The notes beneath the pieces were generated by a model that was given only the letters and a program-made list of their open reading frames with translations, ran no database searches and was not told where the DNA came from. From the IMG/VR virus record IMGVR_UViG_3300017975_000002: a stretch of 64,000 nt of DNA; one strand, written 5' to 3'. A program made the translations under genes and the position numbers. Positions 9,533 to 10,199 of the stretch are shown in pieces; position 1 is the first letter of the stretch, and every line of letters begins with the position of its first letter. The DNA comes from a virus.

Positions 9533-9759
9533 AGACCTTCGGCTACTCAAACGGCAGGCTACCAACTACAGCCGTACCTATTGGCGAGCGATGTCTGCGA
9601 TGCGACCTTCCCATCACGGTAGATGACGTCGGAGTTGTCTTGCCGCACATGGCCCTCATCGGCGACGGCATCGCCGAGACCATCACCGAGAAGCCGTACC
9701 ACCTCAAGTGCTTTTGTCGGGTGCTTGGCATCGACCGCTTCTACGAGAGGATGTCGTGA
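9529..9759 (+). CDS. hypothetical protein
   Basis: ATGA overlap with the exonuclease stop; 76 aa. Confidence 0.4.
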   Translation: MKTFGYSNGRLPTTAVPIGERCLRCDLPITVDDVGVVLPHMALIGDGIAETITEKPYHLKCFCRVLGIDRFYERMS

Positions 9760-10199
9760 TGAACTGCTTCTGCGGCGGCAGCGGAAAATTCACCGACTAC
9801 AACTGTGGTGCGAGCTTCGAAGTTATGTGCCCGCACTGCCAAGGTACAGGCGTGAAGAAGTGTACATGTTCAGAAGCCAAACTCAGATGTAGTCAATTTG
9901 GGCGTGGTCACGAGATCTTCGACGACCCGTTGCAAGCTGCAGCTGCAATACATCGAGCAAAGGAGCGGCAAATGACGTTTGGTGAAGCGATCGAAGCACT
10001 GAAACAGGGCAAGAGCGTTGCCCGCGCTGGTTGGAACGGCAAGAACATGCATCTCTACCTTCAAAAAAGCGTGGTAACGGCTGTATCTACATTCGAGCCG
10101 TGCATCGTGATGTACACGGCACAAGGCAAGCATCAGCCTGGCTGGCTTGCGAGCCAAACAGACATGCTGGCCGAGGACTGGTCGGTGATCGCGTCATGA
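9759..10199 (+). CDS. zinc-ribbon + DUF2829 (Tad2-like) domain protein
   Basis: The N-terminus has CxxC/CxxG repeats. The C-terminus '[31 protein letters not shown] ... [16 protein letters not shown]' matches the DUF2829 consensus. Confidence 0.6.
   Translation: [146 protein letters not shown]

Follow-up and report, generated by a model that had tools for sequence, protein, structure and literature searches.

A Tad2-like domain carried behind a rare eight-cysteine module in a gene of an uncultured virus

Tad2 sponges are among the most widespread counter-defence proteins of phages, and nearly all mechanistic work on them has been carried out on single-domain forms. What, then, is the role of a complete Tad2 domain that sits on a different, independently folding module? 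A natural case is provided by a gene at positions 9759..10199 (+ strand) of a 64,000-nucleotide stretch, hereafter the window, of the IMG/VR virus record IMGVR_UViG_3300017975_000002, for which both the breakpoint and the ancestral arrangement are visible in relatives. The gene starts with an ATG at 9759, ends with a TGA at 10197-10199 and encodes 146 amino acids plus the stop. These coordinates, as given in an initial annotation made from the sequence alone, were exact, and the peptide quoted there was found in the translation; the identical 146-amino-acid call was made by public gene callers, and the exact protein forms a singleton cluster (P0001). We consider it likely that the product is a Tad2-type sponge that takes up the Thoeris signal 3' cyclic ADP-ribose (3'cADPR) and carries a separately folding zinc module; it would be made as a long form and possibly also as a short form. 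Of the two parts of this protein, the known one, Tad2, has good support; the novel one, the module, is genuine, but its function is opaque.

The Tad2-like (DUF2829) domain covers residues 72-146 (9972..10196, +), as indicated by both sequence and predicted fold. The PF11195 (Tad2-like) profile, with which the initial annotation had proposed to check the assignment, matched residues 72-144 over its full length (profile positions 1-73 of 73), with 92.6 bits for a cut-off of 25 and E=2.2e-26. Matches were also obtained with the PHROG families phrog_1048 (1.3e-28) and phrog_872 (3.5e-24). In a phmmer search of PDB sequences, SptTad2 gave the best match (2e-17) and SPO1 Tad2 was found at 3.6e-15, with HgmTad2/AcrIIA7 and MoTad2 also matched. 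An AlphaFold2 model of the full-length protein, for which the Tad2 rows of the input alignment were limited to 20, had a mean predicted local distance difference test (pLDDT) score of 80, with values of about 77-92 over most of the Tad2 domain. Its predicted template modelling (TM) score was 0.50, suggesting that there are two domains whose orientation relative to each other is not fixed. When this model was compared with the PDB using Foldseek, 14 matches were obtained at E<=1e-3, all to Tad2/AcrIIA7 structures, all in the C-terminal half and with a probability of 1.00; target-normalised TM scores ranged from 0.54 to 0.71 and were about 0.7 for the SPO1, Spt, Hgm and Mo Tad2 structures. The predicted secondary structure of the domain consisted of a helix alpha1 (residues 74-82) and beta strands at residues 86-90, 96-102, 115-120 and 141-144. 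Profile match, structures, fold and the pocket residues described below all agree with the family proposed in the initial annotation; the domain is about 75 residues long, not 85 as stated there.

The residues that hold the ligand in solved homologs are retained. In SPO1 Tad2, glycocyclic ADP-ribose (gcADPR) is contacted by W25, N26, W73, T78 and D79, and waters are held by S76, D67 and H71 (bioRxiv 10.1101/2023.05.01.538930), while in HgmTad2 gcADPR binding is abolished in the mutants W21A/N22A and S90A/T92A/D93A (bioRxiv 10.1101/2023.11.15.567273). W92-N93, in the GWNG loop of the fusion protein (10032..10037, +), corresponds to the gcADPR contacts W25/N26 of SPO1 Tad2 and W21/N22 of HgmTad2. 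The second half of the pocket is represented by W129-L-A-S132-Q-T134-D135 (10143..10163, +), equivalent to W73/S76/T78/D79 of SPO1 and to W87/S90/T92/D93 of HgmTad2. In the alignment, all six pocket residues (W92, N93, W129, S132, T134 and D135) were identical to their SPO1 and HgmTad2 equivalents. SPO1 Tad2 (Gp34.65; PDB 8SME/8SMF/8WJE), the founding anti-Thoeris sponge and a small, early phage protein, thus resembles the fusion protein in its DUF2829 fold, its GWNG loop and its W..S.TD motif, the structurally aligned cores being about 50% identical. It is, however, a single domain of 89 amino acids, whereas the fusion protein has a 71-amino-acid stretch of zinc module and linker before Tad2 and an insertion that is about 11 amino acids shorter.

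Closer homologs have been assayed. Tad2_70, 71, 82 and 83, which carry GWNGK...WLASQ(T/A)DML motifs, all (four out of four) inhibited type I Thoeris (Table S2, Hadary et al. 2025, bioRxiv 10.1101/2025.08.24.671296). The Tad2 domain of the fusion protein is 53-60% identical to Tad2_70, 82 and 83, which have GWNGK and GWLASQ(T/A)DML(A/S)(E/D)DW motifs identical to its own, and Tad2_82 is also short (80 amino acids). Unlike the fusion protein, these three are single-domain proteins without a cysteine module, and Tad2_70 also inhibits Pycsar. By homology, the fusion protein would be expected to have anti-Thoeris activity.

HgmTad2/AcrIIA7 and SptTad2 (PDB 8KBI-8KBM, 8WJD) have the same gcADPR pocket as the fusion protein and, in addition, a second pocket for the cyclic dinucleotides cGG/cGAMP, formed by a long (~41-amino-acid) beta2-beta5 insertion that is missing from the fusion protein. 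The distance between the two pocket tryptophans is 37 residues in the fusion protein, versus typically 46 in its own clade, which is marked by an EPCIVM(F/Y) motif, 48 in SPO1 Tad2 and 66 in HgmTad2. Since cyclic-dinucleotide binding in HgmTad2 depends on the long insertion, an activity that SPO1 Tad2 does not have (bioRxiv 10.1101/2023.11.15.567273), the short beta2-beta3 insertion suggests that this second pocket is probably absent. The Tad2 half is therefore predicted to be a 'minimal' sponge, specific for gcADPR only.

The N-terminal part of the protein is a module of eight cysteines and one histidine (C3, C5, C16, C24, H26, C27, C35, C37 and C44), which occupies residues 1-47 (9759..9899, +). 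A HMMER search with residues 1-71 gave 10 module matches among 1.84 billion representative proteins, and a profile search gave 36 among 5.8 billion. Identity between the fusion protein and these 36 homologs was 42-69% over the module. The homologs are nearly all stand-alone proteins of 56-90 amino acids, and the family was seen in phage-like contigs only. Their consensus is CFCGGxGxYxDYNCGxxFxVxCPHCxGTGxKxCxCxxxxxxC; across 37 homologs, each of the eight cysteines and H26 is either invariant or conserved to at least 90%, and the G6/G7/Y14/N15/G31 pattern is present in the fusion protein. When IMG/VR, JGI metagenomes and GTDB genomes were scanned with the module pattern, only one or two weak loci appeared, none of them in genomes. 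No significant Pfam match was obtained, including with the isolated N-terminal segment: the best was Anti-TRAP (PF15777), at E 0.24-1.2 only, and DnaJ_CXXCXGXG was not matched. The best PHROG match to this segment reached only E=0.03, and no structural neighbour of the module was matched. The module is thus a small, rare, undescribed phage family and not a generic zinc ribbon. It probably binds two Zn ions.

The initial annotation had described the N-terminal part as a DnaJ-like metal-binding module. It is Cys-rich and presumably metal-binding, over about 47-55 residues, but the resemblance to DnaJ is confined to its first half. What it shares with the DnaJ Cys-rich domain (PF00684) is one canonical CxxCxGxG (C24-PHC-QGTG) and one variant, of CxC type (C3-F-C5-GGSG), flanking a beta-hairpin, which was predicted at residues 8-12 and 19-23. 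In the full-length model, the module had a pLDDT of 81-91. Using hhalign, the module profile was aligned over 29 columns, with 82% probability, to repeats 2-3 (the zinc-centre-II hairpin) of the E. coli DnaJ Cys-rich sequence. DnaJ has four CxxCxGxG repeats, which form two zinc centres, whereas the module has CxC pairs and single cysteines; no significant profile or structural match to DnaJ was found, and the fusion protein is not part of a chaperone.

Two subgroups of modules were distinguished: modules with an N-terminal helix, which end after the last Cys; and modules that start at the first Cys and continue with '(F/Y)GRGHEI', an acidic run and 'DDPHWMFMD'. The fusion protein belongs to the second subgroup (B) up to FGRGHEIFD, with 70% identity to P0140, after which the acidic run and HWMFMD are replaced by the linker and Tad2. 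The 'FGRGHEIFD' extension (residues 46-55; 9894..9923, +) is common only to the acidic-tail subgroup, and homology to relatives ends with it, in protein as well as in DNA. The acidic run with its 'DDPHWMFMD' tail, which resembles a short linear interaction motif, was observed in P0137, P0139, P0140, P0142-P0145, P0147, P0149, P0150 and P0158, and examples of such genes are found at L010:6001-6231, L012:6001-6237 and L015:5602-5829. The alignment by MAFFT of the 'PHWMF' of this tail with the 'PGWLA' of Tad2 was taken as a coincidence.

Two other fusions of the module were found, one to an Rv2179c-like exonuclease (P0128), which is 31% identical to the exonuclease of the window (E=4e-26), and one to Phage_zn_bind_8 (P0151). 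Moreover, the module gene lies directly downstream of an exonuclease gene in two lineages (L012-L016). These exonuclease links hint faintly at a possible nucleic-acid- or exonuclease-related role of the module. More distant contigs with stand-alone modules (L006:4658-5566, L007:512-1603 and L009:380-9786) carried genes for an RNA ligase (Rnl1-type), NADAR, ribonucleotide reductase, thymidylate synthase and DNA polymerase III alpha nearby; this neighbourhood is an early/nucleotide-metabolism region.

Among 78 close DUF2829 relatives in bacterial genomes, 41 carry at least 40 amino acids upstream of the Tad2 domain in the same open reading frame (ORF). The commonest add-on, present in most of them, is a conserved domain of 65-90 amino acids, 'YIGTK(I/L)IxAxPMTRxxYNxYRGWxLPADEN...GYISWSPKxVFExAYR', located directly before Tad2 and not covered by Pfam (for example, in L019, L028, L043 and L096, among L017-L096, and in P0024 and P0090). 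The DUF2829 proteins with this 'YIGTK...GYxSWSPKxxFExxYR' domain (PHROGs 1048 and 872) have an architecture similar to that of the fusion protein, with an N-terminal domain followed by M/L-TFG...Tad2, and the fusion protein aligned to the C-terminal half of these two best PHROG profiles, which are 172-211 positions long. Their add-on contains no cysteines and is unrelated to the module, and those fusions are usually without an internal Shine-Dalgarno (SD) sequence. Another add-on is present in pdAcrIIA7 of Phocaeicola dorei (PDB 9KZR; PMC13133391), which, like the fusion protein, has a DUF2829 core and an N-terminal extension, and for which natural long and short forms exist. Its 48-amino-acid head domain leaves the tetramer intact and blocks an activity (PMC13133391); in contrast to the Cys-rich metal module, however, this head consists of two helices, and the activity reported is binding of the trans-activating CRISPR RNA (tracrRNA).

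The module had been called atypical for Tad2 in the initial annotation. This holds for the module itself, since the fusion protein is the only one of the 36 module proteins to carry PF11195, but not for N-terminal extensions as such, which are common in the family. No second protein with both the eight-Cys module and PF11195 was found among the 36 module proteins and the Tad2 matches examined, and in a tblastn search of the fusion protein against phages, none of the 326 phage records matched exceeded 73% query coverage or covered the module. The unusual feature is therefore the eight-Cys partner and not the fused architecture. Short Cys motifs were also observed in other DUF2829 proteins, either N-terminal (CPGC...C in P0009 and C...CNC in P0013) or C-terminal (CRMC...CRC in P0021), and small metal-binding add-ons may recur in this family.

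The origin of the fusion could be followed by comparison with syntenic relatives (L010/L011, L012-L014 and L015/L016), which share with the window a VWA_CoxE protein, a 315-amino-acid protein, the exonuclease, a 76-amino-acid protein and further proteins, with amino-acid identities of 45-70%. Each of these relatives encodes the module as a stand-alone protein that ends in the acidic tail. DNA similarity to L010, L012 and L015 extends from the start codon to about 9920 and then ends, with protein homology up to residue 55. The junction or linker that follows (residues 56-71; 9924..9971, +) replaces the acidic tail; no homolog of it was found, and a helix was predicted at residues 57-68 with low confidence. 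In L012, the homolog of window positions 13830..14030 lies directly 3' of the module gene. From this gene order, the window holds about 3.9 kb of additional DNA (9924..13829, +), the start of which falls within the 3' end of the module gene. This lineage-specific DNA, absent from L012, comprises the linker and Tad2, an 83-amino-acid gene, an HNH endonuclease gene and five ORFs without homologs (ORFans).

An SD-like hexamer, AAGGAG (9960..9965, +), is located 6 nucleotides upstream of the in-frame ATG of Met72 (9972-9974); it may be a leftover or may still serve for the start of a 75-amino-acid Tad2 on its own. In the block of the fusion gene, a six-nucleotide SD match precedes 2 out of 25 real gene starts and 2 out of 57 internal in-frame ATGs. 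Among the 78 relatives in bacterial genomes, an SD sequence of at least 5 nucleotides precedes the Tad2 domain in 14 of the 37 stand-alone proteins versus 3 of the 41 fused ones. The strong AAGGAG before Met72 thus suggests that the fusion is recent and that a short Tad2 could be translated separately. We infer that a stand-alone Tad2 gene, together with its ribosome-binding site (RBS), was joined in frame to a truncated module gene fairly recently. Met72 itself had been considered as proof of a former start codon, an argument weakened by the conservation of M/L at this position in anciently fused relatives too. Two other candidate features were rejected. The near-palindrome GCAGCTGCAGCTGC at the junction did not seem to form an RNA structure, its folding energy being no better than that of shuffled sequences (z=0.40), and no partner gene appeared to travel with Tad2, as none of the eight genes at 10196..14030 adjoins Tad2 relatives at 80 bacterial loci.

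Taken together, these observations fit the sponge function that we regard as likely, for which the following mechanism can be proposed. By analogy with solved homologs, the Tad2 domain would form a homotetramer whose inter-protomer pockets, made by W92/N93 and by W129/S132/T134/D135, would enclose 3'cADPR (1''-3' gcADPR), the signal from the Thoeris TIR protein ThsB. Sequestration of the signal would keep the effector ThsA off, and the phage would in this way escape abortive infection. In the module gene, the lineage-specific DNA with the Tad2 gene would have taken the place of the acidic C-terminal tail, and the RBS of the Tad2 gene, surviving in the ORF, could give a short Tad2 beside the long form.

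Several points weigh against this proposal. Positions of secondary contact differ from those of SPO1 Tad2 (I63->M118, D67->Q122 and H71->P127). The helix alpha2 region, which is the dimer interface in SPO1 Tad2, sits in the insertion that is shortened in the fusion protein, so that oligomerisation could differ from that of SPO1 Tad2. Among the homologs assayed, Tad2_78 and the N-terminally extended Tad2_73 inhibited no system (bioRxiv 10.1101/2025.08.24.671296). Other ligands of Tad2 proteins have been described, namely histidine-ADP-ribose (His-ADPR), N7-cyclic ADP-ribose (N7-cADPR) and cyclic UMP or CMP (cUMP/cCMP) (bioRxiv 10.1101/2025.08.24.671296), as well as, in one report, tracrRNA (PMC13133391). 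The module modelled alone reached a pLDDT of 71, which is a moderate confidence. Finally, only a single population is known to carry the fusion.

A rather unlikely alternative, though one that retains some weight, is that the fusion is accidental or neutral: the relevant Tad2 would be the 75-amino-acid product translated from AAGGAG/Met72, and the long form a by-product in which the module is deprived of its functional tail. The strong internal SD is indeed unusual for relatives that were fused long ago, the acidic '...DDPHWMFMD' tail conserved in the closest stand-alone modules has been lost, the fusion is a singleton among the about 36 module proteins and the Tad2 matches examined, and the breakpoint borders the lineage-specific DNA in which an HNH endonuclease gene lies. 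However, the frame stays open up to 10197, which means that ribosomes initiating at 9759 can only produce the long form, and this start has its own AGGA site and is translationally coupled to the upstream gene. Moreover, the eight Cys and the His are all intact, and N-terminal domains are tolerated and common in the DUF2829 family. This alternative overlaps with a sponge made in two forms and does not exclude it.

We find it doubtful that the same fold primarily serves a ligand other than 3'cADPR, such as His-ADPR, N7-cADPR, cUMP/cCMP or a structured RNA (as reported for AcrIIA7). Tad2 homologs with such specificities are documented (bioRxiv 10.1101/2025.08.24.671296; PMC13133391), and Tad2_71 and Tad2_70 bind several ligands (bioRxiv 10.1101/2025.08.24.671296); for anti-Cas9 activity in the DUF2829 family, published results conflict (PMC13133391; bioRxiv 10.1101/2023.11.15.567273). 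The full gcADPR pocket of the fusion protein argues for 3'cADPR, as do the type I Thoeris inhibition by each of the four assayed homologs that share its motifs and the missing insertion of the cyclic-dinucleotide pocket. In addition, Tad2_68 and Tad2_76, which inhibit type II Thoeris only, have W(T/V)PS(I/S) instead of WLASQ.

It is improbable that the module is a partner-binding adaptor rewired to carry the Tad2 sponge, which would make the product a tethered or bifunctional counter-defence protein. This idea comes from the ties between the module and the DexA/Rv2179c-like exonuclease (a neighbour of the module in two lineages and its fusion partner in P0128) and from the acidic, aromatic C-terminal peptide. 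If it is correct, the sponge might, for example, be delivered to a host or phage complex, or signal capture might be coupled to a nuclease, and the long and short isoforms arising from the internal RBS would differ in activity, like the head-domain gating in pdAcrIIA7.

An artefact of assembly or sequencing, with the module and Tad2 being truly separate genes, is very improbable: the three public records that carry the fusion gene (the JGI 64.4-kb contig, ENA ERZ27251241 and Logan SRR7004342) are identical, maybe from one read set, and the fusion was not found in any second lineage, but the JGI, ENA/MEGAHIT-style and Logan assemblies agree, the GC content stays uniform, at about 55%, through the module/Tad2 junction, what separates the gene from its relatives is a substituted tail plus kilobases of DNA and not a single stop-codon change, and the start and stop overlaps on both sides of the gene resemble a native operon. 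The 100% DNA identity of these three assemblies across their overlaps makes the sequence assembler-independent, yet the records represent a single population and not independent lineages.

If the module proves irrelevant, the gene is one more predicted anti-Thoeris sponge. Its wider interest is that the fusion reveals a very rare phage zinc-module family, the association of this family with an exonuclease and its conserved acidic tail motif. In addition, an N-terminal add-on is present in about half of the close bacterial-genome homologs of the DUF2829 family, and such add-ons could gate, target or multiply the activity of the sponge.

The genes around the fusion gene are closely packed. The initial annotation had placed it in a block with an exonuclease and an HNH endonuclease, and both were recovered: an Rv2179c-like DEDD 3'-5' exonuclease (8807..9532, +; Pfam 4.6e-8, phrog_2259 8e-36) and an HNH endonuclease (10450..11025, +; PF01844 3.6e-11). 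Between the exonuclease and fusion genes lies the gene of a 76-amino-acid Cys/His protein (CxxC...HxxCxC; 9529..9759, +), translationally coupled to the fusion gene and kept immediately upstream of the stand-alone module in L010 (5798-5989, uncalled there) and L015 (5399-5596). The ATG of the fusion gene overlaps the TGA of this upstream gene (GTGATGA) and its own TGA overlaps the downstream ATG (ATGA), indicating that the fusion gene is part of a tightly packed, same-strand operon of small genes.

Most genes of the window are ORFans, and none was recognised as encoding a capsid, portal or terminase protein; a megablast search of positions 1-25000 against INPHARED phages returned nothing. Phage-type genes included those for a dCTP deaminase, HNH, RtcB, an ADP-ribosylglycohydrolase, glycosyltransferases and one tRNA, together with a weak match to a virion structural family. 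Contigs bearing the module carry replication and nucleotide-metabolism genes and a lysozyme gene, and reach 206-241 kb. On this circumstantial evidence, the window fits a large (jumbo-type) uncultured phage. The Tad2 relatives were uninformative as to the host, their matches being scattered across many phyla.

Other observations were made in the window. An ADP-ribosylglycohydrolase gene (30685..31617, +; phrog_6572 1.2e-40) is a second ADP-ribose-related candidate for counter-defence, and a tRNA-Arg(TCG) gene (29588..29659, +) is located about 1 kb upstream of it. A 739-amino-acid protein (24925..27144, +) has an RtcB RNA ligase in its C-terminal 360 amino acids (1.5e-115) and a weak PhoH-like match in the N-terminal ~380; it may be a counter-defence enzyme that repairs tRNA and carries an extra domain. 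An 894-amino-acid ORF (16535..19219, +) without a PHROG match was found to be major-vault-protein-like (MVP_shoulder 4.6e-24, Vault_3 repeat 5.7e-10). A 128-amino-acid protein (14330..14716, +), conserved in all three relatives, gave a sub-threshold match to Prok-JAB (1.2e-4). In the relatives, a ThiF/E1-like protein is also encoded a few kb downstream (L010:6817-7230 and 9276-9884; L012:7264-7677 and 10876-11484), which hints at a ubiquitin-like conjugation/deconjugation pair. Finally, a fusion of a methyltransferase with a dual-specificity phosphatase (DSPc) domain was observed beside a nucleotide-sugar epimerase/glycosyltransferase cluster (54529..55632, 51383..52438 and 55642..61005, all on the - strand), a group of genes possibly involved in the modification of DNA or of surface glycans.

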